DNA from: Alphaproteobacteria bacterium UBA3002
GTDB taxonomy: Bacteria; Pseudomonadota; Alphaproteobacteria; Rickettsiales; UBA3002
Assembly: GCA_002346425.1 (NCBI GenBank)
Contig: DDZS01000035.1
Location: 45,835-109,834, forward strand
Direction: 5' to 3'
Length of the DNA: 64,000 nt
Both the position numbers and the translations under genes were made by a program. This document shows, piece by piece, positions 5,063-64,000 of the stretch. Positions within the stretch are counted from its first letter, which is position 1. Each line of letters starts with the position of its first letter. The notes below the pieces were generated by a model, which was given only the letters and a program-made list of their open reading frames with translations, did no database searches and was not told where the DNA came from.

Positions 5063-6061
5063 TTATGCTGCGGCGCTTTTGCTCGCGAACAGGCCTTCTA
5101 CTGCGGCGCGTTCTTCACGCAGCTCTTTCTCGGTCGCGTCCATCCGCTCACGCGAGAAGTCGTTGATCTCGAGCCCTTGCACGATTTCATACTTCCCGTT
5201 TTTGCATGTTACCGGGTAACCGTAAATCACACCCGGCGCGATGCCATAAGACCCGTCAGACGGAATCGCCATAGAGACATATTCGCCGTCTTTTGTGCCC
5301 TGTGCCCAGTCACGCATATGGTCGATCGCTGCCGAAGCCGCGCTTGCCGCCGAAGATGCGCCGCGTGCTTTGATGATCGCTGCGCCACGTTGTTGCACAT
5401 CGGGAATAAAGGTCGATTCGTACCAACCCTGATCGACTTTGCTTAAGGCTTTTTCGCCCTTCACCGTCGCCTGATGCAGGTCGGGATATTGCGTGGAGCT
5501 ATGATTGCCCCAGATAATCAGGTTTTTGACATCCGACGAATGCGCGCCGGTTTTTTCCGCCAACTGGCTCATCGCGCGGTTATGATCAAGCCGCACCATC
5601 GCGGTAAAGCATTTCGGATCGAGATCGGGCGCGTTCTGCTGCGCGATAAGCGCGTTGGTATTCGCCGGGTTACCAACGACCAACACTTTCACGTCGCGTT
5701 TGGCATGCGCGTTCAGCGCCTTGCCCTGCGGCCCGAAAATGGCGCCATTGGCTTCCAGCAAGTCCTTACGTTCCATGCCCGCGCCGCGTGGACGCGCACC
5801 AACCAGAAATGCGAAATCGGCATCTTTGAAAGCGACATTCGCATCATCCGTCGCGATGACGTCTTGCAAAAGCGGGAAGGCACAATCATTCAGCTCCATC
5901 ACCACACCCTTCAACGCATCCAGCGCCGGGGTAATTTCCAGCAATTGCAGAATCACCGGCTGATCTTTGCCGAGCATATCGCCCGAGGCTAAACGGAATA
6001 ATAAGGCGTAACCGATATGGCCAGCCGCGCCGGTAATGGCAATACGAACAGGTGCTTTCAT
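5063..6061 (-). CDS. mdh: malate dehydrogenase (LDH-like type 2 MDH)
   Basis: Start at [18 protein letters not shown], with a GGGAGA RBS upstream. The NAD fold ITGAAG.IG and the motif [12 protein letters not shown] are present. Confidence 0.92.
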
Positions 6062-6166
6062 GAAATTTTCTCCCTTGGTTGCGTGATAGATAAGTCCTGT
6101 CATAGCAGAAACAAGGCAAAGCTGTCATTGAATTTGCGCCGGACACGTGGCATAAGCGCTTCCAAT

Positions 6167-6243
6167 GGTCCCGTAGCTCAGCTGGATAGAGTGTCAGATT
6201 CCGAATCTGAAGGTCGTGGGTTCGAATCCCGCCGGGACCACCA
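6167..6243 (+). tRNA. tRNA-Arg (anticodon CCG), 77 nt with encoded CCA
   Basis: Hand-folded cloverleaf. Acceptor GGTCCCG/CGGGACC; D stem GCTC/GAGT; anticodon stem TCAGA/TCTGA with loop TTCCGAA (CCG at positions 34-36). T arm GTGGG-TTCGAAT-CCCGC, discriminator A, then CCA. Confidence 0.93.
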
Positions 6244-6258
6244 TTCTAGTAAGAATAA

Positions 6259-6933
6259 TTAATTCTTATATCGGGCAGGCGTTACGCAAACATTGCGCCA
6301 ATAGGTCACAAAAGTGACAATATCTTGCACATACATGTCTGATTGCGCGTTTTTTTGGATATAGCCGCTGGCGTGTGCGTCATACGCCGCTAATAGATCC
6401 TGCACGCGAATACTATTACTCAGCATCACCACGGGCAGTTGTTTAAAGCTAGATTTTTTCAACTCTTTCAAGGCATCGATGCCATTGGTGCGCGGCATAT
6501 TAATGTCCATTAAAATCACATCCGGTAACGCACTCATAGATTTTAACGTCTGCAGTAGTTTATCCGCTTCATAGACATGAATGATTTCAACGGGCGTATC
6601 CGTTTCCTGAATCGCTTCCATCAATAAAATAACATCTGCTGAGTCATCTTCCACAATCATTAACCGGAGTTTACGCGGTTCTTCTCGTGTTAGCAGTGTT
6701 GGCGCTGTCACGGGCTCTTCATTCAATCCCTCCAATAAGTCAGAAGCTTCAAGGTTCAGGCATCGCGCTAATGGGATGAGTTTGCTAACGCTGATTGTGT
6801 TTTCGCCCGATTCGTAGCGCTGGATCTGTTGCGCAGAAAGCTGCAGAAGCTCACCAAGTTCAGCCTGACTCAACCCCAATTGCGTGCGCCGCTGCTTTAT
6901 CTTTTTTCCTAAAACAACATCGATCTGTTTCAT
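6259..6933 (-). CDS. atypical response regulator: N-terminal XRE-type HTH followed by C-terminal CheY-like receiver
   Basis: Start at MKQIDVVLGKKIKQRRTQLGLSQAELG (ATG at 6933). The HTH_3 pattern is LSQAELGELLQLSAQQIQRYESGEN. The receiver shows LMIVEDDSADV ... DVILMDINMPRTNG ... K. The gene is visibly more AT-rich than the flanking core genes. Confidence 0.8.
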   Translation of the reverse strand: MKQIDVVLGKKIKQRRTQLGLSQAELGELLQLSAQQIQRYESGENTISVSKLIPLARCLNLEASDLLEGLNEEPVTAPTLLTREEPRKLRLMIVEDDSADVILLMEAIQETDTPVEIIHVYEADKLLQTLKSMSALPDVILMDINMPRTNGIDALKELKKSSFKQLPVVMLSNSIRVQDLLAAYDAHASGYIQKNAQSDMYVQDIVTFVTYWRNVCVTPARYKN

Positions 6934-7075
6934 ATGCCCCCCTTTTAAGGGATTTATCGTACAGCAAATAATCAAAGCTTTAAAGTCTTAGAAAATCATC
7001 TGACAATGAGACTACTCACAAAAAACCAATTGGCAGTAAAATAACCTACTAATCTTTCTTGTTATTTTTGGAATT

Positions 7076-7090
7076 ACCCGTCTGACGGGT
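7076..7090. promoter_or_regulatory. perfect 15 bp palindrome ACCCGTC-T-GACGGGT, candidate operator in the divergent promoter region
   Basis: Read directly from the sequence. It lies 5 nt upstream of a candidate -35 for the MCP gene, between the divergent HTH-REC and MCP genes. Confidence 0.35.
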
Positions 7091-7094
7091 TTTA

Positions 7095-7122
7095 TTGCCT
7101 CAATTATCACGTCCAATATAAC
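7095..7122 (+). promoter_or_regulatory. candidate sigma70-type promoter of the MCP gene
   Basis: TTGCCT, a 16 nt spacer, then TATAAC. The pair lies 65 nt upstream of the ATG, and AAGGAG RBS is at 7175-7180. This is a by-eye call only. Confidence 0.3.
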
Positions 7123-7186
7123 CACATTTTTCTCTATGATTATTAATAGATAAACACACATAAAAAATTAATTTTAAGGAGCCCAA

Positions 7187-8890
7187 ATGAAACTTTTCTC
7201 CGGTACTCGCACACAAAAAAGCGCTCAGGAGTTAACCGCTTTACAGCGGTCGATGGCGGTTATTCGTTTTACTCCTGAGGGTATAATTTTAGATGCTAAT
7301 GATAATTTTCTAACCGCCACTGGCTATGACGTAGAAGAAGTGGTGGGTCATCACCACCGTATGTTTATGGATCCTACCGAAGCGGCTACGTCTGATTATG
7401 AGACATTTTGGAAGCAGTTGGCGCAGGGAGAGTTTCTGTCCGGTCAATTCCGACGCATTGCAAAATCCGGTGCCGATCTCTGGATTGAGGCCACCTATAA
7501 TCCTATCCTGGATAACGACGGGAAGGTGATCGAGGTGGTGAAATATGCCAGTGATGTGACACAAGAAAAATTGCTGAGCGCCGATTATAATGGGCAATTA
7601 CAGGCCATTTCAAAAGCGATGGCGGTCATTGAGTTTGATCCAGATGGGAATATCCTCCGGGCGAATGATAATTTTTTAGCCGCAATGGGCTATACGTCTG
7701 AAGAAGTAATCGGCCAGCATCATCGCATCTTTGTCGATGCCGCTTATGCTAATAGCGACGACTATGCTCAGTTATGGACACGTCTTCGTGACGGTCATCA
7801 TGTAAGCGACGAATTTCAACGCTTTGGCAAAGATGGTAAAGAAGTCTGGATTCAGGCCAGCTACAATCCTATCCTCGACATGAATGGCAAGCCCTTCAAA
7901 GTCGTCAAATATGCGACGGATATCACGGCGTCTAAGTTACAAAATGCCTATTTTGCCGGGCAGATAGAAGCGATCGGCAAATCGCAAGCCGTGATTGAAT
8001 TTGATATCAATGGCATTATCCAAACCGCCAACTCGGTTTTCTTAACCGCAGTGGGATATCGGTTGGATGAAATCCAAGGTCAGCACCATCGTATTTTTGT
8101 GGCACCCGAAGAACGCGACAGCAAAGAATATACGGATTTTTGGGCACGCTTAAAATCTGGCCAGTATGATGCACGGGTGTATAAACGCCTGCGTAAAGAC
8201 GGCAGCGAAATATGGATTCAGGCCTCCTATAATCCGATTAAAGATGCGAATGGCATCCCCTATAAAGTCGTTAAATATGCGACCGATGTGACGCGGGTGA
8301 TCCAAACTTCCGGCATGGCGCAGGAAAGCGTCTATAACCTGCAAAGTGTCGCTACCGCGGTTGAGGAGTTATCGGCTTCTGTAAAAGAAATTAGCTCCAA
8401 CATGGTCGATTCGAATAATTCGACCTCTGGCATTCTGCAAAGCTCGATTCAGACGTATGGCGAGACGGAGCGTTTGGTAAGTAGTGTGGAAAAAATGAGC
8501 GACGTGGTCAATTTGATCAATGATATCGCTGGCAAAATCAATCTTCTTGCTCTGAACGCGACCATTGAATCGGCGCGCGCAGGGGAAGCGGGCAAAGGCT
8601 TTGCCGTCGTGGCCTCGGAAGTGAAAACGCTGGCGACCCAGACCGCGAAAGCGACTGACGAGATCGCCGAAGAAATCTCGGCCCTGCAAACCATCGCGCG
8701 CACCGTTGCGGAAAGCGTGAATCATATCCGTAACGACGCGCAAACCGTCAGCGAGAAGGTAGCCAGCACCGCTTCTGCCATTGAAGAACAAAGCGCAGTA
8801 ACCAGCGAAATATCCGGCAATACGCAACGCGTCGCCGGTTCAATTGAAGAGATCGCGTATCGTATCAACGAATTATCGGCGGTGAATTAA
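7187..8890 (+). CDS. soluble methyl-accepting chemotaxis-type transducer with three tandem PAS domains
   Basis: No hydrophobic TM segment is seen. Three repeats of about 120 aa share AVI(R/E)F..(E/D/N)G.I..AN..FL.A.GY...E..G(H/Q)HHR(M/I)F and W(I)(E/Q)A(T/S)YNPI...G....VVKYA(S/T)D(V/I)T. The C-terminal MCP hairpin core is [31 protein letters not shown]. Confidence 0.88.
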
Positions 8891-9035
8891 GGACCGCGGT
8901 AAAAGCGTTATGGCAAGGTGCCCGCAGCCGACACCTTTGTGACTAAACTAAGCTCCGAGTCACCTGTGTTCCGGCATAAAGCGGAACCTTGCCAGCTTCT
9001 ATCCTTATTTAAGCAGCTCACATTCTATAAAAAAA

Positions 9036-9971: not shown

Positions 9972-10013
9972 GGCAGGAATATGGGCCAACGGAAGGTAAT
10001 AATCAAGCGCACC

Positions 10014-10436
10014 CTAGCGCCCGTGCGCGGCACCCGCCCCCGTGTCGGGCTGATCATAACTGGAAATAGCCGGATTAATCGGCTCAAGCGCGTGCATCAG
10101 GCTGCCACTGGCGGCTTGACTGTTACCATAGCGGCGGCTGCTTTCATGCAGCAGTACATCATAGTAGCGTACCAGCGTAGCGTAAGTAATGCCTTTAGAG
10201 CGCGGTAATTTGGCGATTACTATTCCCTCCACCTCTGCGGTCCAGGCTTTCAAGACGTAATGCTGACCATCCCTGTCCAGACGCCCGGTAATGCAGACCT
10301 GCGTGCCCCCTCCCCGTCTCCGGCTGGCAATTAAACACGTGTCGCCGGATCGATTCACATGAGTTAGCGGAAAAGGTAACCCAGGGGGTTTTTGGCGAAT
10401 ATCGCAGGCGAGGGTGCTGGTTGCTGACATGCCCAA
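10014..10436 (-). CDS. hypothetical protein (140 aa), no family recognised
   Basis: The ORF sits in the gap between der and the ABC ATPase on the same strand. A TTG start at 10436 has GGGAG 7 nt upstream; an alternative ATG is at 10430. Composition resembles the neighbours. I recognise no motif. Confidence 0.45.
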   Translation of the reverse strand: MGMSATSTLACDIRQKPPGLPFPLTHVNRSGDTCLIASRRRGGGTQVCITGRLDRDGQHYVLKAWTAEVEGIVIAKLPRSKGITYATLVRYYDVLLHESSRRYGNSQAASGSLMHALEPINPAISSYDQPDTGAGAAHGR

Positions 10437-10478
10437 TCTGTAGCTCCCAACTATGACAATTTCATGACGGTTTTGCGT

Positions 10479-50915: not shown

Positions 50916-50987
50916 TTCATACCTCCGCTTCCTACATTAGGTGTAAGGCATAATGCGCCGAACAACAAGCGGCAATGGAGCAGAGCT

Positions 50988-51233
50988 ATGGACAAGGGAT
51001 CGACCTTTTTTGACGACTTAAGCAAACTGGCAACGGGTGCGGCGGGCTCGTTTCGGGAAATGGGCCGAGAAATGGAAAAAACTGTACGTCATCAGGTAGA
51101 TGCGTTTTTAGAACGCAGCAATCTTGTTACTCGGGAAGAATTTGAAGTTGTGCGCGCCATGGCCGAGAAAGCCCGCGCGGAAAACGAACAGTTGCGCATC
51201 GAACTGGAAGCGCTGAAAAACAAGGCGTCTTAA
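50988..51233 (+). CDS. ubiK: accessory factor UbiK / BMFP family coiled-coil protein
   Basis: Start at MDKGSTFFDDLSKLATGAAG. The region LVTREEFEVVRAMAEKARAENEQL is typical of the family. Length is 81 aa. Confidence 0.75.
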   Translation: MDKGSTFFDDLSKLATGAAGSFREMGREMEKTVRHQVDAFLERSNLVTREEFEVVRAMAEKARAENEQLRIELEALKNKAS

Positions 51234-51308
51234 GCCATATTTAGCGATTTTTACTAAGCGAATAATCTATATCTTGTGGTTTTTTCCCCCGACCCCATAG
51301 AAATCCTT

Positions 51309-51337
51309 TTGAGCAGATGCACAAAATATGGTGTAAT
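51309..51337 (+). promoter_or_regulatory. candidate sigma70-type promoter for ybjN-like/proC
   Basis: TTGAGC, a 17 nt spacer, then TGTAAT. It is followed by a leader hairpin gccgga-gct-tccggc (51344-51358). By-eye call only. Confidence 0.3.
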
Positions 51338-51382
51338 GCGTTTGCCGGAGCTTCCGGCTAACCGTCATATCAGGGAGGCCTT

Positions 51383-53304: not shown

Positions 53305-53332
53305 AAGGGGAGCTTTTTAGCTCCCCTTTTTT
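53305..53332. terminator. bidirectional intrinsic terminator between the convergent phasin and kinase genes
   Basis: Stem aaggggagct / agctcccctt with loop tttt. T-run downstream on the + strand, A-run upstream (a T-run on the - strand). Confidence 0.75.
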
Positions 53333-54632
53333 ATTCTACCTGCTGTAATTCGATGGGCAGGTTGATGCTCACTTGCAGCCCACCTTTTTTCAGGTTACGC
53401 AGCTCAATCGTTCCCCCATGCGCTTGCACCGCATCGCGCGCGATACTCAGGCCCAAACCTGCGCCTCCGGTATCCTGATTACGCGACACATCTAGCCGGG
53501 TAAAAGGCTGGAAAATTTCTTCCATTTTTTCTTCCGGCACGCCTGGGCCTTCATCACTCACGCTGATAACGATATATTTCCCGTCACGCCGCGTGGTTAT
53601 ATCGGCTTTGCCGCCATAACGTAGCGCATTATCGATCAGATTATGCAGGGCCCGGGCCATCTGGTTACGGCGTATCGGCAGTTGCGCCTCGCTTTTTCCT
53701 TCAAAGGTCACCGGCTCTTCTTGCCGCTGATAGCGCTCAACCATCCGCGCGATAAACGCATCGATGTCTTCGACCTCAGCTGTTTCGCCAGACGCTCCGC
53801 GCGCGAAATCAAGATATTCATTGATCATGCGCTCCATCACGCCAATATCGTATGCCAGCGCCTCGGCCGCTTCCCCTTCCGGCATCATGGCAAGTTGCAG
53901 CTTCATGCGTGTCAGCGGCGTGCGCAAATCATGGCTAATGCCCGCCAGCATTTGCGTACGGGTGGTGACCTGCCGCTGTATCCGATTGCGCATCACCATA
54001 AAGGCGCGCCCGGCCTGCCGCACTTCCGCCGCCCCGCGCGGACGAAAGTCGGGAATATCATGGCCTAATCCAAACTTTTCTGCCGCTTCTGCCAGATTGC
54101 GAATCGGGCGAATCTGATTGCGAAGAAACAGTACCGCGATGGTCAGCAGAATCAGAGCCGATCCCACCATCCATAGCAGGAAGATATAGGTCGTAGAACT
54201 AACCAAACGTTTCTTATCGACCTCTACCACCAGCACGGTGTCAGGGGTCAGCACTGCAATTTCGATATCCTCGCGCGCGTCCAGCTGACGGATGGAAAAT
54301 GGCACGTCTAATTTGCGTGCCAGCAATGCGTAGAGTTCCGGATATTGCGCCTGCCCAATGCCGTCACTAAAGACCCGACTTCTATCCTGATGGATGCCAA
54401 AACCCATCCACTCCCCGGCTTCTTCAATCTCGCGATACGGTTTGCCCGCCTGCGCCATTTCACTGAGCAAGCGCACCTGCCCTGCGAGCGTGTTGGACAT
54501 ATTGCGGACAATGCTGTCCCAATGCCGTTCGTAAAACATGTAGATCGCGACCAGTTGTACCAGGATCGTGGGTAACACCAGAATCAGCAAAGCGCGCCCG
54601 AATAACGTATAGGGAAGCCAGCGTTTGCGCAT
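53331..54632 (-). CDS. EnvZ-like sensor histidine kinase (2 TM, HAMP, HisKA, HATPase_c)
   Basis: Two TM segments, a HAMP region, H-box ISHDLRTPLTR, and the N, G1 and G2 boxes (NLIDNALRYG, DEGPGV, GGAGLGLSI). Confidence 0.88.
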   Translation of the reverse strand: MRKRWLPYTLFGRALLILVLPTILVQLVAIYMFYERHWDSIVRNMSNTLAGQVRLLSEMAQAGKPYREIEEAGEWMGFGIHQDRSRVFSDGIGQAQYPELYALLARKLDVPFSIRQLDAREDIEIAVLTPDTVLVVEVDKKRLVSSTTYIFLLWMVGSALILLTIAVLFLRNQIRPIRNLAEAAEKFGLGHDIPDFRPRGAAEVRQAGRAFMVMRNRIQRQVTTRTQMLAGISHDLRTPLTRMKLQLAMMPEGEAAEALAYDIGVMERMINEYLDFARGASGETAEVEDIDAFIARMVERYQRQEEPVTFEGKSEAQLPIRRNQMARALHNLIDNALRYGGKADITTRRDGKYIVISVSDEGPGVPEEKMEEIFQPFTRLDVSRNQDTGGAGLGLSIARDAVQAHGGTIELRNLKKGGLQVSINLPIELQQVE

Positions 54633-55288
54633 CAGTTGACCCGTAATACATAGCCCGCGCCGCGCACGGTTTGTATGAAGCGTGGTTTCGGGCTATCCGG
54701 TTCCAGTTTTTTGCGCAAGCGATTGATTTGCACATCAATGCTGCGGTCCTGATCGTCGCCACCCGACAAGGCCGCGCGCGAGACGGGTTCCCCCGGCTGC
54801 TTCGCCAATAAATTAAGGAAATGGCGCTCGCTGTCGGTCAGATGCACGGGCTGATCTTCCTGCCATAACTCGCCCTGATTGACATCATACCGATAAGGCC
54901 CAAACATAATTTCCGACCGGCGCGGTGCAGCGCTGCGCAACAAATTATTTAACCGCAACACCAGCTCTTTTGGCTCAAAGGGCTTACTGAGATAATCGCG
55001 CGCCCCCGCTTCCAATCCTTCGATGCGCGCATCGGATTCTCCCATGGCTGTCAGCAATAGGATCGGCGCCTGTTTATCCGCGATCGCTTGCGTTAAGCTT
55101 AAACCATCTTCTCCGGGCATCATACGATCGACCACCAGTGCATCGAATTGCAGTAAAGAGAGTTTAGTGCGCGCCACCTGGGCATCTTCAGCGGTAACCA
55201 CAAAAAACCCCTGTTTCGACAAATAATCCTGTAACAATTTACGCAAGCGCGCATCGTCATCGACCACCAGAATATGCTTTTCATTCAT
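54632..55288 (-). CDS. OmpR-family response regulator
   Basis: Start at MNEKHILVVDDDARLRKLL (ATG at 55288, overlapping the smr stop as ATGA). Receiver D at VVDRMMPGEDG and a winged-helix C terminus (FIQTVRGAGYVL). Its stop overlaps the kinase start by 1 nt. Confidence 0.92.
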   Translation of the reverse strand: MNEKHILVVDDDARLRKLLQDYLSKQGFFVVTAEDAQVARTKLSLLQFDALVVDRMMPGEDGLSLTQAIADKQAPILLLTAMGESDARIEGLEAGARDYLSKPFEPKELVLRLNNLLRSAAPRRSEIMFGPYRYDVNQGELWQEDQPVHLTDSERHFLNLLAKQPGEPVSRAALSGGDDQDRSIDVQINRLRKKLEPDSPKPRFIQTVRGAGYVLRVN

Positions 55289-55794
55289 CGGCGTAATTTC
55301 CCTGCCTGTTTCAGTAGCAGATAAAATGCACCGCCGCCACCATGCTGCGGCCTGGCCTGATCGATGGATAACACCCATGGCCGCAAATCCGGCTCATTAA
55401 CCCAACGCGGCAGCAGGTTGCGTAACCGCCCTTCCTGATATTTGCCCTTGCCTGTAATCACCAACACCATGCGCGCGCCTTGCTTGCTTTGCGCGTGAAT
55501 GAATTCTTTAAAGAACACGTAAGCCTCCTCGGCATTCAGGCCATGCAGATCGATTCCGGCATCAATTGGGTGATGCCCGCGACGGACCCGGCGTTTGCGC
55601 GCAGTGTCGATATTGGCATATTCACCCGGTATCAAAGGGTCTAGCGCAGGTACAGCGCGCGGTTGCTGGCGCAGTGTTTTGTCGCGTGCGACTTCCGCCG
55701 TAAACGCATCCAAATCGAGTTTCGGGCGTTTCTGGCCAACGGCTTCTTGCCAGTGTTGCAACTCTTCAGCCGTTAGCTCACGTTCCCCCTTCAT
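55285..55794 (-). CDS. Smr (MutS2-like small) domain protein
   Basis: Smr motifs IDLHGL..EEA...L and VITGKG. ATG at 55794 overlaps the mltA stop (ATGA). Confidence 0.85.
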   Translation of the reverse strand: MKGERELTAEELQHWQEAVGQKRPKLDLDAFTAEVARDKTLRQQPRAVPALDPLIPGEYANIDTARKRRVRRGHHPIDAGIDLHGLNAEEAYVFFKEFIHAQSKQGARMVLVITGKGKYQEGRLRNLLPRWVNEPDLRPWVLSIDQARPQHGGGGAFYLLLKQAGKLRR

Positions 55795-56825
55795 GGCAAT
55801 AACAGCGTCCACACTCCCGGAGATTGTTGGTGGCCAGCCAGTCGCGCCGCCACCTCGCCCGTGCCAAAAAAGATGTCTCCGCGCAACGGGCCTTTGATCG
55901 CTGTGCCGGTATCCTGCGCGACCATTAATTGCGCGAAGCGGCGACCATCATGTAGCTGCGTTTCTATAAACACCGGCAATCCGAGTGGAAAAAAGGCCGG
56001 ATCGACGGCTAGCGACTGTCCCGGTGTCAGCGGTACATTTTGCGCCCCTTTCGGCATTTCGTCTGCCGCTTCCCGCGTGAAGAACACGTAAGACGCATTT
56101 TCCTGCATCAATGCCTGCGATTGATCGGGATGCCGTTCCAGCCAATCCCGAATCGCCTGCATAGACATGTCTTCCTTGGCTACCTCGCCCCGCGCGATTA
56201 AGATTCGCCCGATGGGGGTATAGGGCTGCTCGCTCTTCGCTGCAAATTGCAATTTCCGTCGCGTCCCATCTGGCAAACGGATAAAACCGGACCCCTGAAT
56301 CTGTAAAAAGAAACGGTCAATCGGGCTTTGCAACCACGCTAAAATCGGTGCTTTTCCTGCGAGCGCGCCTGCGTCAATCGCCTTACGCGAAAGGTGTTTA
56401 TAGGGAACTGTCGGCACCCCATAGACGGGAACCGTATGCTGCGCGTCTTTCTGTAAAGCCGCCGAAAAATCCGGAATGAAATAGCCCGTCAGCAAGCCCG
56501 GCTCCTCCGCTGTCATCTGATAAAACCGGAATTCATTTTCAAAAAACCGCTTCGCATCCGTGGTTGTTTTCGCCTTGGTACACGCGGATTGCCAGCGGGC
56601 TTGCGGTACATAGGGTTGCAAATGGGGGGGTATGGTTTTACTGGCAATACAAGAGCGCTTAAAGGCGTTAAGGGCTGCCGCATGATTTGTTGACGCCCAA
56701 TCCGCAGGCAACTTCGCTGGCGTTAGGGTTACCGCTTGTGCGGGTAAGGCACACAAAAACAATAGCCCAAAGACGACCCCGCGCAGCCCCAGCCGCGCCG
56801 GGTTTACATGTCGACGATGGTCCAA
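55791..56825 (-). CDS. mltA: murein transglycosylase A
   Basis: Signal peptide, MltA domain (GYF.P...A, LQIQGSG.I.L.DG) and 3D domain (VAQDTGTAIKGPLRGDIFFGTG). Confidence 0.9.
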   Translation of the reverse strand: MDHRRHVNPARLGLRGVVFGLLFLCALPAQAVTLTPAKLPADWASTNHAAALNAFKRSCIASKTIPPHLQPYVPQARWQSACTKAKTTTDAKRFFENEFRFYQMTAEEPGLLTGYFIPDFSAALQKDAQHTVPVYGVPTVPYKHLSRKAIDAGALAGKAPILAWLQSPIDRFFLQIQGSGFIRLPDGTRRKLQFAAKSEQPYTPIGRILIARGEVAKEDMSMQAIRDWLERHPDQSQALMQENASYVFFTREAADEMPKGAQNVPLTPGQSLAVDPAFFPLGLPVFIETQLHDGRRFAQLMVAQDTGTAIKGPLRGDIFFGTGEVAARLAGHQQSPGVWTLLLP

Positions 56826-57484
56826 TTCGGATTGCGCGACTTTAAGTTGCGCTCAAACTGCCATTCGTCTGAGACATCCTCAACGAGTGAGGCATCCCCT
56901 TCAATGATTTTCCCTTGTTTGTCTTTTACCACATGAATCTGCTCGGTCAGAAACGCAACGGTAATACGCATTGTGCTGCCTTGGGTCGTCACATCGCGCA
57001 AATCAGCTTCTTTAATGGCGACCAACGTGGTTAGCGTTTTGGTATCGCTCGCCTCGGCCTTTTTCAGATCATCATCAAACGATGCATAGAGGTCTTTGTT
57101 CAACAGCATTTTAAGCGTATCGCGGTCGCCTTCGTTATAGGCTTGCAATACCATCTCCAGCGCCTGCTTCGCGCCTTGCAGGAAACTATCGAGCGTGAAA
57201 GATGGGTCGACGGCTTTTGCCTCTTCCAGCTCTGTACGCAATTTCGTATCTTCGACTTTTTTCAGGCTCTCGTCTTCTGGTAGAATAATTTCTACCTCAT
57301 CCGCCTGTGGCATATCATACAGCTGCACCACTTTCTCGCGTGAGGACGGATGCCGCGTGCCATTGGCTTTCGGCGTAACGTCATGCCCGCGCTTTTCCCC
57401 GAGCATGCTGCGATAACGCAGAATGATAAAAGCGGCTATCGCCGCGATGACGATGATATCGCCATATGCAAATCCGTCTGACAT
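56804..57484 (-). CDS. Tim44-like domain protein (membrane anchored)
   Basis: N-terminal TM (IIVIAAIAAFIIL) and a C-terminal Tim44-like domain ending WQFERNLKSRNPNWTIVD. It occupies the conserved position between mltA and secB. Confidence 0.8.
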   Translation of the reverse strand: MSDGFAYGDIIVIAAIAAFIILRYRSMLGEKRGHDVTPKANGTRHPSSREKVVQLYDMPQADEVEIILPEDESLKKVEDTKLRTELEEAKAVDPSFTLDSFLQGAKQALEMVLQAYNEGDRDTLKMLLNKDLYASFDDDLKKAEASDTKTLTTLVAIKEADLRDVTTQGSTMRITVAFLTEQIHVVKDKQGKIIEGDASLVEDVSDEWQFERNLKSRNPNWTIVDM

Positions 57485-57604
57485 AAGGTCCTACTTTAGT
57501 TTTTACCGGCTTCGACGGATTGCGAATTGATTTCACAGCCCGAATCTATTACATCGCAGCATATAAGAGAATTAGCCGTTGAATCAAGGCAAAGGAGCAT
57601 GAGT

Positions 57605-58072
57605 ATGAATGATCAGGCCACGCAACCGCAGATGCTTTCACTGCGCGGACAATATATTAAGGACATTTCTTTTGAGAATCCGCGGGCGCCGCAAAGCCTG
57701 CTGAACCTGAAAGAGCCGCCGGCGATTGAGATTAATGTCGATCTGAGCGCGCAGCGCCTGCAGGATAATATGTTCGAATTGACCATGCATATCGGGGCGC
57801 GGGCTAGTCAGGATAAAACGACTGTGTTCCTAACCGATCTCGCTTATGGCGGCATTTTTGACGTTCCCGGCGATGAGAATACCGATTTTGAGCGACTGGT
57901 ATTAGTGGATTGCGCCTATATGCTGTTCCCTTTCGCGCGCCGTATTGTGGCAGAAATCACGCGCGATGGTGGGTTCCCCCCGTTACAGATTGAACCGGTC
58001 AATTTCGCCGGACTTTATGAACAAAATAAAGGCAATATTCAGCGCGCTGCCCCACAAGCTGCGGCGGAGTAA
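57605..58072 (+). CDS. secB: protein-export chaperone SecB
   Basis: YIKDISFENP, LFPFARRIVAEITRDGGFPPL. The ATG at 57605 has GGAG 7 nt upstream; the ATG at 57599 is also possible. Confidence 0.92.
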   Translation: MNDQATQPQMLSLRGQYIKDISFENPRAPQSLLNLKEPPAIEINVDLSAQRLQDNMFELTMHIGARASQDKTTVFLTDLAYGGIFDVPGDENTDFERLVLVDCAYMLFPFARRIVAEITRDGGFPPLQIEPVNFAGLYEQNKGNIQRAAPQAAAE

Positions 58073-58075
58073 TCC

Positions 58076-58756
58076 TCAGCCAAGCTTCGCCCAAATTGGG
58101 TCGTTCAACTGTTCTAAAAATTGCAGATGGGCTTTAATCTCTTCCGGGCTAACCTCGAAATGCCGTTCGGGCAAATCATAGGCATGCGGCATGGCGGTCG
58201 TTTCTTTTTCCGCTCGGACCTCGGCCTGTAGCGCCAATCCCGATTGCCGCCCACCGCGCAATTCCAGATAAACGTCCGCTAGTAACTCCGCATCTAGCAG
58301 TGCGCCGTGCTTGGTCCGTGCGCTCAAATCAATCCCGAAACGTCGGCATAAGGCATCCAAATTGGCTGGCTGCCCGGGGAATGCCGCGCGCGCCATCTGC
58401 ACCGTATCCACCGCTTGCGCCATCGACAATTTGCGTTTGCCAAGCCACTCCAGCTCAGCATTCAGAAATTTCATATCAAACGCTGCATTGTGAATGACCA
58501 GCGGATCTGAACCGATGAATTCCAGAAAACTATCGGCGATATCTTTGAATAAAGGCTTGTCGGATAGGAAGGCAGAAGACAATCCATGAATCCGCTCCGC
58601 TTCTTCCGGCATGTCCCGCTCGGGATTCAGATAAATATGAAAATGGTTGCCGGTGCGGATATGGTTCTGCATCTCCACCGCGCCGATTTCGACCACCCGA
58701 TGCCCGCTATAGGGGTCTAGCCCAGTGGTTTCCGTATCTAACGCTATCTCACGCAT
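58076..58756 (-). CDS. dnaQ: DNA polymerase III subunit epsilon (3'-5' proofreading exonuclease)
   Basis: Exo I DTETTG, Exo II HNAAFD and Exo [11 protein letters not shown] motifs. Confidence 0.95.
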
Positions 58757-58783
58757 TCGTTTTCTTTCGGCTGTCTTGTTACC

Positions 58784-59362
58784 CTAACCGATGCTTGTAA
58801 GCACCCGTTTCACTTCGCGTATGGTAACGCCTTTTCCCTGATGGGTGGGTATGACAAAATCGCTTCTGTGGATGCGCAGCGCATGGCCCATTTGTTTAGA
58901 TAGGATACCGGAGAGTTTTTTCTCACTCATGCCCGGTCTCCGCATGGCGCGTTGCCATTGAATAAAGGTGGGGCAATAGGTGGTGATGGTATAATCGCAT
59001 AACGCATCGGCGCCGGTTTCAAATAAAAGCGGGATATCGAGCAGAATTAACCGGCGGTGATTGCGACGTTGTTGGCGAATGAACGCATGCTCCTTCGCCC
59101 GCACTGCCGGATGTAACATATTTTCCAACTGACGAAGCGCTGCCGCATCCTGAAAGACCCGCGCGCCTAATAGTTTTCGGTCGATGTGATTATTCTTCAC
59201 CGCCTCTGGAAACGCGTCGGATACTTCGTAAAAACATTCGTGCTGCAGCAAATGATGCACGGTTAGATCGGCATCGAATATCGGCACGTTGTGGCGGGCA
59301 AACATCCGGCTAACGGTGGTTTTTCCTGTGGCGATGCCACCGGTCAATCCTAAGATGATCAC
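58784..59362 (-). CDS. coaE: dephospho-CoA kinase
   Basis: GLTGGIATGKTT P-loop; 192 aa; overlaps the aroE stop by 4 nt. Confidence 0.93.
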   Translation of the reverse strand: MIILGLTGGIATGKTTVSRMFARHNVPIFDADLTVHHLLQHECFYEVSDAFPEAVKNNHIDRKLLGARVFQDAAALRQLENMLHPAVRAKEHAFIRQQRRNHRRLILLDIPLLFETGADALCDYTITTYCPTFIQWQRAMRRPGMSEKKLSGILSKQMGHALRIHRSDFVIPTHQGKGVTIREVKRVLTSIG

Positions 59363-60192
59363 AGCGATGCTTCCAGCAAAGAAAGCACGTCCTCATCCAC
59401 GTGCGGCCGCGCACCGAACCATAGCTCAAACCCGGGCACCCCTTGATGAGCCAGCATGCCAACACCGGTGACAATCGGATTGCCGCGTGCGTCTGCTGCT
59501 TTTAGTAGACCGGTCATCAGCGGTTTATAAACAATGTCGGTGACGAGCGCGTCTTTCGGCAAAGCATCCAGCGCAAAGGGCCATGGCGCATCGTCCCCCA
59601 TGCCCAAACTGGACGTGTTCACTAACAAAGTCGTTTCTGCCATTGCCGCTTCGGTTTCCGCCCAGTCCAGTGTTTCACATGGAACACCAAAATGTTCGGC
59701 GAGTGCATCGGCACGGGAACGGGTACGATTGGCAATCAGGATTTTTTGGAATCCCTCCTGTTGCAACGCATAAATAATTGCGCGCGAAGCGCCACCTGCC
59801 CCAATAACCAGCGCCTGCTGTTTAAACCGTGATAAATCGTGGTGATGGTATTTCAGATTCTGTAAAAATCCTTCGGCATCGGTATTGGTCGCGTAGATCG
59901 TCTCGTCCGAGTTAAACTGCAACGTGTTGACTGCACCGATGGCTTTCGCGGTTTCACTGATATCCTGCACCAATGCCATTGCTGCTTCTTTATGTGGAAT
60001 CGTCAAATTACATCCCACAAATCCTAGCTTCGGCATGGCAAGCAACACATCTTTCAAATCGTCCGGTTTGATTTCCATGGGAAGATACATGCCAGGTATA
60101 CCCATGGTCTGTAGCCAGTAATTATGCATGGGCGGAGAAAGTGATTGTTTGATCGGATAGCCGAGTACTGCGGCTGTGGGTAGTTGCATCAT
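59359..60192 (-). CDS. aroE: shikimate dehydrogenase
   Basis: GYPIKQSLSP.MHN, NLTIPHKE, GAGGASRA and NRT motifs. Confidence 0.93.
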   Translation of the reverse strand: MMQLPTAAVLGYPIKQSLSPPMHNYWLQTMGIPGMYLPMEIKPDDLKDVLLAMPKLGFVGCNLTIPHKEAAMALVQDISETAKAIGAVNTLQFNSDETIYATNTDAEGFLQNLKYHHHDLSRFKQQALVIGAGGASRAIIYALQQEGFQKILIANRTRSRADALAEHFGVPCETLDWAETEAAMAETTLLVNTSSLGMGDDAPWPFALDALPKDALVTDIVYKPLMTGLLKAADARGNPIVTGVGMLAHQGVPGFELWFGARPHVDEDVLSLLEASL

Positions 60193-61019
60193 TGGCTTAA
60201 GCGCTCCAACTGTTTACGCCGGTAGTTGATAATCAGTGCCGCGGTTTCTTCCACCGAGCGGCGCGTCACATCGATCATCGGCCACCCCTGTTTGCGATAT
60301 ACTTTTTTCGACGCGTCGATTTCCGCCTGCACTTCTTCGCTGTCGACATAATTCGAATCCTGCTGGTCTAACGAAAGCAATCGGCTTTTGCGAATTTGCA
60401 GTAAGCGATCCAGACTGATGGTAAGACCCACGATCAAAGGTGGGCGCCGAAGGTCATGAAGTTGAAAGAGTTTTTCCGGTAATTCGATGCCGCCGACGAA
60501 TGGAATATTAGCGGCCTTATAACCGCGGTTCGCCAGATAAATACAGGTCGGCGATTTTGATGTGCGCGACACACCGACCACGATAATATCGGCCGATTCC
60601 AATTCCCAATGGCCCTGCCCATCATCATGCGCCAGCGTGTAATCGATCGCGGCCACGCGTTCATAATAATCATCGCCCAGCTCATGTTGCTGTCCGGGTT
60701 TTTGTGAGGCTTCCATATTCAGATAGGCGGATATCTCACGGATCACTGGCCCTAAAATGGGGATGCAGGGCAAGCGGCGTTCATTACAGCCGCGGCGCAA
60801 TGCTTCGCGCAGGTCCGGGTTGACTAACGTATACATCACGACGCCCGGATTGGCATCGAGCGATTGCAGCACTTTTTCCAACTGGCCTTTGGTGCGCACC
60901 AGCGTCCAGATATGTTCCTGCACTTCGACCTGATCAAATTGCGCCATCGCCGCGCGCGATACGCTGGAAACCGTTTCTCCGGTAGAATCCGAAACGAGGT
61001 GCAAATGAAAATCTTCCAT
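60189..61019 (-). CDS. pyruvate, phosphate dikinase / PEP synthase regulatory protein (PDRP, DUF299)
   Basis: HLVSDSTGET and P-loop-like GVSRTSKSPT; 276 aa. It is the first gene of the aroE-coaE-dnaQ operon. Confidence 0.9.
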   Translation of the reverse strand: MEDFHLHLVSDSTGETVSSVSRAAMAQFDQVEVQEHIWTLVRTKGQLEKVLQSLDANPGVVMYTLVNPDLREALRRGCNERRLPCIPILGPVIREISAYLNMEASQKPGQQHELGDDYYERVAAIDYTLAHDDGQGHWELESADIIVVGVSRTSKSPTCIYLANRGYKAANIPFVGGIELPEKLFQLHDLRRPPLIVGLTISLDRLLQIRKSRLLSLDQQDSNYVDSEEVQAEIDASKKVYRKQGWPMIDVTRRSVEETAALIINYRRKQLERLSQ

Positions 61020-61417
61020 GCCCTCAACTTAACCGGGCTTGTGTATAAAGGCGAGTATAGATCAACGCATAAACCTGTGCTTGGAACTGTGTGCAGATTA
61101 TTTGTCGCTTTTATGTGTATATCCTACGGTCTTTCCCCGGGCGTTATCCCCATTAGCGCATGCGTTTTTCTCACACAGGCATAACTTCCATCCACCCCTT
61201 TATGGAATTTTTATATTTTTCTCTTTTCGCTTTATATTCCAGTTTGCTTGGTCCCAGCTCCTCATATTTTGGATAGCAGTTATACGTAATGTTTTCCACG
61301 CGGATAGTTTCGTGGATAACCTGATAGCAAACGCTCATCCCCATAATTCCTCCCCCCAATAAACAACAAAATCTTTTCTATTATCTTTATTATTATTTTG
61401 GGTTAAGCCTTCGAACC
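61020..61417. other. candidate chromosomal replication origin (oriC)
   Basis: This is the largest non-coding gap in the window and is markedly AT-rich. It lies between the divergent DUF299/PDRP and hemE genes, the arrangement known for Caulobacter Cori. DnaA-box-like 9-mers: TTATACACA (61040-61048, -), ATATACACA (61114-61122, -), TTATCCCCA (61144-61152, +), CTATCCAAA (61268-61276, -), TTTTCCACG (61292-61300, +), TTATCCACG (61311-61319, -). AT tracts lie at 61201-61240 and 61358-61400. Confidence 0.6.
61171..61344 (-). CDS. possible small ORF (57 aa) inside the AT-rich gap; may be spurious
   Basis: GGAGG at 61349-61353 lies 4 nt before the ATG at 61344 and 10 nt before the ATG at 61338. The reading frame is open for 57 codons despite AT-rich sequence. 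No family is recognised, and it overlaps the DnaA-box-like cluster. Confidence 0.25.
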   Translation of the reverse strand: MGMSVCYQVIHETIRVENITYNCYPKYEELGPSKLEYKAKREKYKNSIKGWMEVMPV

Positions 61418-62440
61418 ATGTCAGACATTCTGCTTTCCAACCTTCGAGGTAACCCTACCGATCGCATCCCTTTCTGGTTCATGCGCCAAGCCGGGAGATA
61501 CCTGCCGGAATACCAGAAAGTGCGTCAGAATTTTACGAATTTCCTGGAATTTTGCTACACTCCGGAAGCGGCGTGTGAAGTAACCCTCCAGCCATTGCGG
61601 CGCTACGATATGGATGCTGCGATTCTGTTTTGCGATATTCTGGTGATTCCCGATGCCTTGGGTCAGCCGGTCACTTTTGTCAAAGGCGAAGGACCGAAGT
61701 TGGAAGCACTCACGGACGAGAAAGCCATCAGCGAATTGACGCCAGAACGCATACGAGAACATCTGGCACCGGTTCAGGAAAGCATTCGATTGATCCGTCA
61801 GGCGTTACCGGAAAATAAAACACTGATCGGCTTTTCCGGCGCGCCATGGACGCTGGCCTGTTACATGTTGGAAGGCGGCGGCAGCAAAGAATTCGGAGCA
61901 GCGCGTAGTTTGTTGCATCGTGAGCCCGAAACCTATCAGCGGTTAAGCCGCATTTTGGAAACTGCAATTACCGATTATCTGTGCATGCAGGCTGAAGCCG
62001 GTGCGCAGGTTGTCAAACTCTTTGACAGCTGGGCTGGGGTGCTCGATTGTGAAGGATTCGATCAAGCGGTGGTTGCGCCAACCCAGCGCATCACCTCCGC
62101 CTTTAAAGCCAAACATCCCAATGTGCCTGTGATTGCATTTGCGCGTGGGGCGGGTGCCAAACTCGCTCAATATGCAAAGCAAATCGGTGCCGATTGCGTG
62201 GCTTTTGATCAAACGCACCCTCTGAGCATGGCATTGGAAACCGGAATCTGTATTCAGGGAAATCTGGATAATTATGTATTGCAAAGCAGCGCAGAGGCAG
62301 CCGTCGCCCAAACCAAGCATATTTTGAGCGGCGCAGGTAAGGCACCGTTTATTTTTAATCTCGGGCATGGTGTGCTACAACATACTCCGCCGGAACATGT
62401 CGCCGCCGTGGCGGAAACCATTCGCGGATACAGGAGATAA
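61418..62440 (+). CDS. hemE: uroporphyrinogen decarboxylase
   Basis: PFWFMRQAGRYLPEY, ILFCDILVIP, and 340 aa length. Confidence 0.95.
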   Translation: MSDILLSNLRGNPTDRIPFWFMRQAGRYLPEYQKVRQNFTNFLEFCYTPEAACEVTLQPLRRYDMDAAILFCDILVIPDALGQPVTFVKGEGPKLEALTDEKAISELTPERIREHLAPVQESIRLIRQALPENKTLIGFSGAPWTLACYMLEGGGSKEFGAARSLLHREPETYQRLSRILETAITDYLCMQAEAGAQVVKLFDSWAGVLDCEGFDQAVVAPTQRITSAFKAKHPNVPVIAFARGAGAKLAQYAKQIGADCVAFDQTHPLSMALETGICIQGNLDNYVLQSSAEAAVAQTKHILSGAGKAPFIFNLGHGVLQHTPPEHVAAVAETIRGYRR

Positions 62441-62882: not shown

Positions 62883-64000
62883 TTAAATGGTCGACAGGTC
62901 TAGCGCCAGATCTTCGTAAGTGGTGCTAAAGTTACCCAGTTTATTTGCATGCTCATGAATGAAGAAATTGGATTCACTCAGCGAGGTTACATTTGTCAAA
63001 GTAACGCTACCATGATCGCCAAAGTCCAAGACGGCATTGCCGGATTCAATGCGGTAAATTTGCGTATAATCCAAGGATGACAAAATTGCAGGATCGATAA
63101 AGAGGATATCCCCACCATCTCCCGCCGTGAAATCTTCGATCACGTCATCGCCGTTTAATTGTGTAAAGACAAAGGTATCGCGGCCACTTCCGCCATACAT
63201 CACATCATCGCCAAGCGTACCATATAGATAATCAGCGCCGCCAGAGCCATAGAGCGTATCATTGCCCAGCCCGCCGACCAGATGATCATCGCCGTCGGTG
63301 AGATCGGTGGCATCGCTGCCGCCATAAATAACATCGTCACCGCCATTGCCGACGATCACATCGTTTCCGGCATCGCCGTAAATCGTGTCGGCCTCGTCAT
63401 CAGCATGGGCGATGCCGCCCCCGCCCGCTAACAGATCATTACCTTCGCCGCCGTGAATCACGTCTTCGCCGCGACCGCCGTAAATGTCATCATTGTTGCC
63501 GGTACTGGCAGTTTGCTCATCCCCGTAAATCACATCATTGCCTGCGTTACCTAAAATGACATCCTTACCTAATCCGCCAACTAACGTATCATTACCATCC
63601 GAAAAATCAGCGATGCCGGTACCGCCAAATAAGACATCATGGCCTTCTCCTCCGGTAAGAGCCTGATCGCCGCTACCCCCTTGAAGGGTAACACCTGCCG
63701 CCAGCGATCCGGAAGAAAGCACGTAAAAGCTTTTGGTGCCTGCCACGTAATAGATGGAAGTCGGACCCGACAATTCTCCGGCATTATTCAGACTATCGAT
63801 AGAATTATTAATGGTCGTGTTATGATTTGCCTGGAACATCTCGTTAGGTTCAAAGCGTAGAATGTCTTCACCATAGGTAAAGTCGTCGATGACAATATCT
63901 TCAAAGCCGATGATGAAGGTATCGGCACCCGCGCCGCCATGTACGACATCGGCGACGTTCCCTTCGATCGTATCGTTCCCATCACCGCCATCCAGATAAT
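62883..64000 (-). CDS. RTX-type calcium-binding secreted protein (hemolysin-type nonapeptide repeats); N-terminal part lies beyond the window
   Basis: The frame stays open from 63839 to the window edge (YLDGGDGNDTIEGNVADVVHGGAGADTFIIGF...). There are more than 12 GGxGxDxxx-type repeats (GGEGHDVLFGGTG, GGLGKDVILGNAGNDVIYG, GGRGEDVIHGGEGNDLLAGG, GGLGNDTLYGSGGADYLYG, GGSGRDTFVF). The C-terminal 90 aa is non-repeat, consistent with a T1SS signal region. Confidence 0.85.
   Translation of the reverse strand, partial: YLDGGDGNDTIEGNVADVVHGGAGADTFIIGFEDIVIDDFTYGEDILRFEPNEMFQANHNTTINNSIDSLNNAGELSGPTSIYYVAGTKSFYVLSSGSLAAGVTLQGGSGDQALTGGEGHDVLFGGTGIADFSDGNDTLVGGLGKDVILGNAGNDVIYGDEQTASTGNNDDIYGGRGEDVIHGGEGNDLLAGGGGIAHADDEADTIYGDAGNDVIVGNGGDDVIYGGSDATDLTDGDDHLVGGLGNDTLYGSGGADYLYGTLGDDVMYGGSGRDTFVFTQLNGDDVIEDFTAGDGGDILFIDPAILSSLDYTQIYRIESGNAVLDFGDHGSVTLTNVTSLSESNFFIHEHANKLGNFSTTYEDLALDLSTI

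Follow-up and report, generated by a model that had tools for sequence, protein, structure and literature searches.

Where replication begins on the chromosome of Alphaproteobacteria bacterium UBA3002 is the question raised by one large intergenic region in a 64,000-nucleotide stretch of its contig DDZS01000035.1 (hereafter the window, meaning the whole stretch that was analyzed). This gap separates the gene for PDRP, a DUF299 protein, from the divergently transcribed hemE, and a sequence-only reading of the window had proposed it as oriC, the origin from which the chromosome is replicated. The spacer between hemE and the COG1806 gene is an established origin site, with the Caulobacter origin mapped to a spacer of 404 bp and the Rickettsia origins predicted in spacers of 383-396 bp (PMC1914354 Table 1; PMC6393856). 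The oriC of Azospirillum lies in yqfL-hemE (bioRxiv 10.64898/2026.09.14.751567), and sphingomonad origins are also linked to hemE (PMC4741004). Criteria for origins of this type come from Brassinga, Siam and Marczynski (J Bacteriol 2001), as restated in PMC1914354 and cited in PMC4741004; in the restatement the intergenic region exceeds 300 bp, is typically 380-620 bp long and is AT-richer than the genome. Judged from its sequence and from comparison with relatives, the gap is very probably an active chromosomal oriC of the hemE-linked type. Its position, composition, cluster of DnaA boxes, conserved footprints and a local skew switch with the polarity of an origin are established here.

The gap is 398 bp long and has a GC content of 0.41, against 0.528 across the window, in which neighboring genes are separated by a median of 12.5 bp. 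Two nominally longer gaps (9990-10478 and 50916-51382) are occupied by small called genes, which leaves the PDRP-hemE gap as the largest true intergenic region of the window and bears out the description of an unusually large, AT-rich gap among tightly packed genes. All flanking genes were identified with NCBIfam models above curated cut-offs. To the left, in order, are PDRP, aroE, coaE, dnaQ, secB, a Tim44/TimA-like gene and MltA, with secB alone on the plus strand; to the right are hemE and hemJ, divergent from PDRP-aroE-coaE-dnaQ as the sequence-only reading had stated. That reading had also likened the gene order at 56804-61019 to that of Caulobacter and Rickettsia. The likeness stood for aroE, coaE, dnaQ, secB and the Tim44-like gene and failed for maf, which the NCBIfam search of the window did not find in the gene cluster beside PDRP.

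We lengthened the window to 81,433 bases with scaffold_65 of TARA_SAMEA2622837 (two mismatches in the first overlap, none in the second), and the gene content right of the gap then comprised hemE, hemJ, a minus-strand RTX-repeat gene, rho, sucCDAB, lpdA and more genes of both strands. Marine metagenome contigs, from Tara Oceans and elsewhere, encode an identical hemE protein. Among 5.8 billion proteins the closest relative was 76% identical in hemE (a JGI contig, L084, hereafter the sister) and the next were ~58% identical, among them the relative L086, so the lineage is sparsely sampled.

Skew provided evidence for the position of the origin that is independent of gene orientation. Plain GC skew mixes replication with coding-strand bias, and in a per-gene regression its transcription term (0.047) exceeded its replication term (0.026). 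We therefore replaced it with skew at third codon positions (GC3) and a two-factor regression, in which the coding-strand term vanished (-0.019 +/- 0.012) and the replication term was 0.071 +/- 0.014. Over the 81.4 kb, GC3 skew on the plus strand was negative left of the gap for plus-strand (-0.064) and minus-strand genes (-0.054) and positive right of the gap for both (+0.027 and +0.163, respectively). The cumulative GC3 skew reached its local minimum (-683) directly after the PDRP gene, and the best two-segment change-point of all gene boundaries fell between 61019 and 61418, exactly at the gap. The negative-then-positive polarity indicates an origin and not a terminus.

The same switch was observed in related genomes. 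The cumulative GC3 minimum of the sister also lies directly after PDRP and is followed by a steep rightward rise (+318 in 10.7 kb). In L086 the skew of genes in both orientations changes from negative left of the gap to positive right of it, with the cumulative minimum after dnaQ, 2.2 kb left of the gap. Plain skew within +/-10 kb had its minimum inside the gap or within ~190 bp of it in L084, L086, L017 and L039, and the right-minus-left difference was 0.07-0.17 compared with 0.000 +/- 0.041 in 40 beta-/gammaproteobacterial hemE control loci. Strand-skewed 5-7-mers transferred from the left side to the right were uninformative, and the within-left control was likewise not persistent.

DnaA boxes were searched for as 9-mers with at most one or at most two mismatches to TTATCCACA. 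The gap contains seven at the looser threshold, three of them with one mismatch, where at least six had been claimed from the sequence alone, and it holds the only such cluster in the 64 kb. Among 398-bp sliding windows the gap was the sole maximum for both counts, and the fractions of windows that reached it (0.0019 and 0.0015) all overlapped the gap. In 5000 dinucleotide-preserving shuffles of the gap, the probability of at least three boxes with at most one mismatch was 0.0002 and that of at least seven with at most two mismatches was 0.0004. Other intergenic regions of at least 140 bp within 72 kb had at most one box each at the looser threshold. TCCCCA, the consensus of the weak W-boxes in the Caulobacter origin (PMC4285127), is found within two of the gap boxes (2 copies vs 0.08 expected). 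A facing pair of boxes, noted earlier as TTTTCCACG at 61292 and CGTGGATAA at 61311, was confirmed, and L086 has TTATCCCTA in place of the left arm, at the same place and with the same 10-nt spacer.

The comparison with the sister separated constrained from unconstrained elements of the gap (Table 1). Four-fold sites of hemE, PDRP, aroE and hemJ are 38% identical between window and sister, a neutral rate near saturation, so that long identical stretches are under constraint. Conserved blocks cover the boxes at 61040 and 61144, the inverted pair and part of the hemE-proximal AT tract. Two further blocks, TGTCGCTTTTATG and CGGTCTTTCCC, may be promoter elements of PDRP or a site for another origin protein. 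The first AT tract, the boxes at 61114 and 61268 and the middle GGATAG core diverge at the neutral rate. The box at 61114 is probably a chance match, and although three GGATA(G/A) cores are present as the sequence-only reading had noted, two of them are unconserved and probably not functional elements. At the level of the locus, eight alphaproteobacterial relatives have PDRP and hemE in divergent arrangement across a gap of 381-474 bp, each gap being more AT-rich than its surroundings, and most of these gaps are in the top 2% locally in box density. The order of the PDRP-side cluster is the same in L005, L017 and L084 and partly so in L039, L050 and L086.

Table 1. Features of the candidate origin and its boundary genes, with positions in the window; identities are to the sister genome.
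Feature	Positions	Strand	Basis
PDRP / DUF299 (COG1806, yqfL), left boundary gene	60189..61019	-	NF003742 331.9 bits vs cut-off 225; PF03618
Whole PDRP-hemE intergenic region, candidate oriC	61020..61417	.	Composition, unique box cluster, GC3-skew minimum/change-point
Conserved block including box TTATACACA	61038-61062		21/25, P = 3e-6
DnaA-box-like TTATACACA, 1 mismatch, 22-30 nt upstream of PDRP start codon	61040..61048	-	Box search and sister footprint
Conserved block TGTCGCTTTTATG, not a DnaA box	61102..61114	.	12/13, P = 7e-5
DnaA-box-like ATATACACA, 2 mismatches	61114..61122	-	Unconserved in sister
Conserved block CGGTCTTTCCC, not a DnaA box	61127..61137	.	11/11, P = 2e-5
Box TTATCC(C/T)CA plus flank	61143-61152		9/10, P = 1e-3
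DnaA-box-like TTATCCCCA, 1 mismatch, W-box core TCCCCA inside	61144..61152	+	Sister has TTATCCTCA
First AT-rich tract, GC 22.5%	61201..61240	.	16/40 = neutral rate; sigma-70-like match 61210-61238
DnaA-box-like CTATCCAAA, 2 mismatches	61268..61276	-	Unconserved in sister
Inverted box pair block, both boxes 9/9	61291-61319		24/29, P = 9e-7
DnaA box TTTTCCACG, 2 mismatches, inverted pair left arm	61292..61300	+	9/9
DnaA box TTATCCACG, 1 mismatch, best box, inverted pair right arm	61311..61319	-	9/9
W-box-type 9-mer TCATCCCCA, 2 mismatches, directed at AT tract, 80 nt ahead of hemE start	61335..61343	+	TCCCC[AG] position shared with relatives
C6 run (G+C cluster) between W-type box and AT tract	61352..61357	.	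CCCCC kept in L084 and L086
Candidate DNA unwinding element: hemE-proximal AT tract	61368..61402	.	Instability and conservation
Conserved part of hemE-proximal AT tract	61371-61402		31/32, P = 2e-12
hemE (uroporphyrinogen decarboxylase), right boundary gene	61418..62440	+	TIGR01464 377 bits vs cut-off 303, alignment from residue 5

These footprints bear on whether the gap could be a chance AT-rich spacer without special function. One-mismatch boxes show no global excess in the window (13 vs 10.7 expected), as such a spacer would allow, but their clustering has a chance probability of ~2-4e-4, the footprint P values reach 1e-6 to 1e-12, and both the length and the position of the gap are conserved in the eight relatives. 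On the footprint statistics we regard a chance spacer as effectively refuted.

Conservation might also derive from a small gene or a small RNA in the gap and not from origin elements. Gene finders called a 57-aa open reading frame at 61171-61344 (minus strand) on three contigs (L001, L002, L003), and the Caulobacter origin, Cori, encodes a small RNA (PMC6393856, PMC8959179). The reading frame had no Pfam hit, and its tblastn match in the sister spans only 17 aa, over the box pair, while the remainder diverges at the neutral rate with indels; we rejected it as a false gene call. Rfam at the gathering threshold matched only a tRNA at 6167 in the window and gave no match in the gap even at E<=1. 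A small RNA could coexist with an origin and would leave the skew switch unexplained, and as the source of the conservation either product is very improbable. A terminator-like hairpin at 61141-61159 (GCGTTATCCCCATTAGCGC followed by a T run, with the box TTATCCCCA in its loop) was also rejected, as the count of such hairpins was at shuffle expectation and the stem is unconserved in the sister.

Two nearly pure AT tracts had been proposed from the sequence alone as unwinding elements. That description fits 61358-61400 (GC 14%) and was overstated for 61201-61240. The hemE-proximal tract includes the least stable 30-bp duplex in 72.4 kb (61368-61397), located 25 nt from the last box, and contains the tandem 12-mers ATCTTTTCTATT (61371-61382) and ATCTTTATTATT (61383-61394). 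Because this tract is both conserved and least stable, whereas the first tract is neutral, we placed the candidate DNA unwinding element (DUE) at 61368-61402. Comparative and stability data make the hemE-proximal tract the more likely unwinding element; the first tract is probably neither that nor any other functional element. The same stretch, 61368-61402, probably also bears the hemE promoter or leader. A sigma-70 scan of the gap gave two matches vs 1.7 expected, none of them in the conserved tract on the hemE strand.

An alternative is that the gap is a relic or a purely regulatory divergent PDRP/hemE promoter region that keeps DnaA-box-like sites, either ancestral or bound by DnaA as a transcription factor, and that the active origin is elsewhere. 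With the conserved AT tract stopping 15 nt short of hemE's start codon, and with the PDRP leader containing the box at 61040, some of the conservation could stem from constraint on a promoter or leader. Every box in the gap is imperfect, and origins have moved off one boundary gene in some alphaproteobacteria, e.g. Wolbachia (PMC1914354). A regulatory region does not, however, explain the GC3-skew switch found at the gap in this genome and its sister and within ~2 kb of it in L086. The 64 kb contain no second box cluster, and 31 of 32 identities across the tract together with two inverted boxes at 9/9 exceed the needs of a simple promoter. We consider a relic or a purely regulatory region unlikely.

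For the gap as oriC we infer DnaA binding, a site of unwinding and a role for transcription, as follows. DnaA would bind the imperfect boxes, of which the conserved ones are TTATACACA (61040), TTATCCCCA (61144), the pair TTTTCCACG/TTATCCACG (61292, 61311) and the W-type TCATCCCCA (61335). A DnaA oligomer on the hemE-proximal boxes would then open the adjacent unstable AT tract at 61368-61402, and the helicase would be loaded there. Forks would depart both ways, to the left through PDRP-aroE-coaE-dnaQ and to the right through hemE-hemJ-rho-sucCDAB. As in Caulobacter, in which transcription of hemE plays a part in initiation, the AT tract would probably hold the hemE promoter too. The functional boundaries of the origin may reach into either flanking gene.

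Several observations weigh against an active origin at this gap. No box in the gap is a perfect consensus match, the best having one mismatch. The cumulative curve of plain GC skew declines from position 1 to its minimum at 65850, 4.4 kb right of the gap, before rising; the minus-strand RTX gene and coding-strand bias confound it and account for the displacement, which shows that the local skew signal is noisy. The skew data span 61 kb to the left and 20 kb to the right, so the minimum is a local one, and the positive GC3 skew on the right owes much to a few genes (RTX +101, sucA +55). The left side has no co-orientation bias (~27 kb co-directional vs 32 kb head-on), and a 23-kb plus-strand run at 15455-38083 (Tad/Cpa pilus, uvrB, TRAP transporter, PHB depolymerase-like, carA/carB and others) is head-on to a fork from 61.2 kb. 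A dnaA gene was not seen in the annotated parts of the window; an origin without dnaA beside it is normal in this bacterial class. The CtrA site TTAA-N7-TTAA was not found in the gap, either exactly or with one mismatch, and neither was GANTC (~1.2 expected, not significant alone). The integration host factor (IHF) consensus WATCAANNNNTTR and its relaxed form had no match on either strand of the gap, which is weak evidence given the looseness of the consensus. Finally, a published rule asks for a DnaA box (at most two mismatches) and, within 0-16 nt of it, three or more trinucleotides on the trio strand whose middle base is A (PMC8287927), and no such arrangement was found at the hemE-proximal box at 61335 or at the inverted pair.

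The RTX gene is an observation in its own right. It encodes 629 aa with RTX / HemolysinCabind repeats on the minus strand, from 62883-64000 on to 64772 (L001 11466-13355), has hemJ and rho as its neighbors, and is 1.5 kb away from the putative origin. Its GC3 skew on the plus strand is an extreme +0.33, and the gene shifts the plain minimum to 65850. The sister and L086 pass straight from hemJ to rho, and the gene is therefore an insertion in this genome.

Compared with the features expected of a hemE-linked oriC, the locus has the position, the neighboring cluster, the length and AT content (398 bp; 59% AT vs 47% in the window), the box cluster, the skew and the AT element, and it lacks CtrA and IHF sites as well as GANTC. 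CtrA sites and GANTC are also absent from the gaps of the sister and L086, and with ~1.1 GANTC expected per gap, finding none in the three gaps is no more than mildly unusual. The gap of L039, a Methylocella metagenome-assembled genome, has one CtrA box and four GANTC sites, and that of L050 has four GANTC sites. The response regulator at 54632-55378 resembles OmpR and is not CtrA. CtrA sites are not universal in hemE-linked origins, since a Wolbachia strain lacking them has been recorded (PMC1914354). CtrA, IHF and GANTC sites are regulatory additions and do not define a DnaA-dependent origin. The sequence-only reading had already reported the gap free of TTAA-N7-TTAA and GANTC, which holds even when one CtrA mismatch is allowed, and its suggestion that cell-cycle control may differ from that of Caulobacter is reasonable on these site counts. 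Its principal claim, that the gap is oriC, gained support from synteny and spacer length, from the GC3-skew switch and from footprint conservation.

Comparison of the gaps also pointed to a possible unwinding module. On the hemE-directed strand, the window, L084 and L086 each have TCCCC(A/G) 80-81 nt ahead of the hemE start, and L005, L006 and L018 have it at a similar place. A pattern defined post hoc, TCCCC[AG]-N12-19-CTAC, often with CTACTAC, was observed in five of nine syntenic gaps, hemE-proximal at 80-140 nt (L084 ~10074, L086 ~9920, L005, L006 and L018); it occurs nowhere else in those loci and seven times in 1.08 Mb of control loci. The DnaA-trio consensus is 3'-GAT-5' (PMC8287927, PMC6669920), and CTA on the hemE-directed strand is 3'-GAT-5' on the other, so that in these relatives a box and a spacer are followed by trios and an AT tract. 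The pattern is absent from the window, where CAATAAAC stands instead and the box-proximal trios are CAA TAA ACA, not CTA. The box-plus-trio rule was satisfied in the gap only at 61144 (GTT TTT CTC, spacer 11), and so loose a rule permits a chance match. The orientation of box to trio in this test was that of the E. coli R1-DUE.

We regard a conserved W-box-plus-trio module as a lead and not as a finding. A hemE-linked origin without CtrA/CcrM input might be common to the window, the sister (76%) and L086 (58%), one that uses a compact ancestral alphaproteobacterial unwinding module not yet described in that class. Its parts would be a W-type ATCCCC(A/G) directed at hemE, 13-18 nt of spacer with a C run at the end, DnaA-trios of the CTA type and a tandem 12/13-mer AT tract like that of E. 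coli. This proposal is tentative and, in our view, doubtful. If it were true, the weak W-boxes of Caulobacter would be a conserved unwinding trigger and not mere auxiliary sites.

Gene order around the gap has been rearranged in L086, in which PDRP-dnaQ, the gap and hemE-rho are unchanged. The block secB-Tim44-MltA-Smr-response regulator-histidine kinase is 3-8 kb left of the gap in the window (53331-58072) and 7-11 kb right of it, mirrored, in L086 (16938-21026). Bacterial genomes typically show origin-spanning inversions in which genes retain their orientation to the fork (PMC5850607), and the mirrored block is consistent with an inversion across the origin, which is supportive but not specific. 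The der-ABC block also switched sides in L086, and its orientation relative to the fork was not kept.

The locus adds one very probable hemE-linked origin at a location already known for Alphaproteobacteria and, that location being textbook knowledge, leaves current understanding unchanged. The added value is modest and consists of the footprint map, the placing of the probable unwinding element in the hemE-proximal tract and a hint that a W-box-plus-trio module may be conserved. For a marine alphaproteobacterial lineage that is uncultured and has hemE relatives no closer than those described above, it anchors the origin and allows replichore assignment, peak-to-trough estimates of growth rate from metagenomes and correct rotation and annotation of assemblies. 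The footprint map shows which boxes and which AT tract merit mutation, and the three related genomes, with neither CtrA sites nor GANTC in their gaps, add slightly to what is known of the reach of Caulobacter-style origin control in the class. Two errors in public annotation can be removed, the false 57-aa gene and an over-long hemE of the sister. The latter is called at 391 aa, probably in error by ~51 residues, and reads into the gap (L084 10001-10153).

Far to the left, a low-GC stretch at 6000-8900 (0.446 over 6001-8000) adjoins a tRNA-Arg(CCG) at 6167-6243. It contains genes for an HTH(Xre)-plus-receiver protein (6259-6975, minus strand) and a PAS-domain methyl-accepting chemotaxis protein (7187-8890, plus strand) and may be a small acquired island.

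Among known systems, the Sphingopyxis oriC near hemE is similar in that conserved boxes and a DUE were found there by comparing intergenic regions (PMC4741004), a likeness of description. The oriC of Azospirillum baldaniorum shares the location between yqfL (the PDRP/DUF299 gene) and hemE and has six DnaA boxes of mixed orientation (bioRxiv 10.64898/2026.09.14.751567), again likened by location and description; it differs in having parAB 12 kb from the origin, whereas none was seen here in the 20 kb right of the gap. The predicted origins of Rickettsia prowazekii, R. typhi and R. conorii (between hemE and RP001/COG1806) are alike in their boundary pair, spacers of 383-396 bp, AT enrichment and few DnaA boxes (PMC1914354 Table 1), and different in their reported CtrA and IHF sites and their ~82% AT compared with 59% here. 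The Bacillus-type basal unwinding system resembles the gap in having a box directed at an AT tract with a G+C cluster following the box, and the relatives carry TCCCC[AG]-N12-19-CTAC(TAC) (PMC8287927); the trios of the window and the rule at 61335 depart from it as described above. The E. coli DUE is matched by the tandem AT-rich 12-mers ATCTTTTCTATT/ATCTTTATTATT, the first of which, with the base before it, agrees with the M 13-mer at 11 of 13 positions, and is unlike them in that the repeats here contain no GATC.

The closest comparison is with Cori of Caulobacter crescentus, reportedly described by Marczynski and Shapiro, by Brassinga et al. in 2001 and by Taylor et al. in 2011. The gap differs from Cori in having no CtrA sites, GANTC (CcrM) sites or IHF consensus match, no G-boxes (TGATCCACA), no maf after the DUF299 gene and no Rfam match that would indicate a small RNA encoded in the origin, and in that its better boxes are TTATCCACG-like. 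It shares with Cori the boundary genes (hemE and CCNA_00001, duf299), a nearly equal spacer length (404 vs 398 bp) and the AT enrichment (PMC6393856, PMC1914354). The DnaA boxes of both are imperfect or weak and include W-boxes of the TCCCCA type, both have an AT-rich element toward hemE, and a hemE promoter is expected inside (PMC6393856, PMC1914354, PMC4285127).

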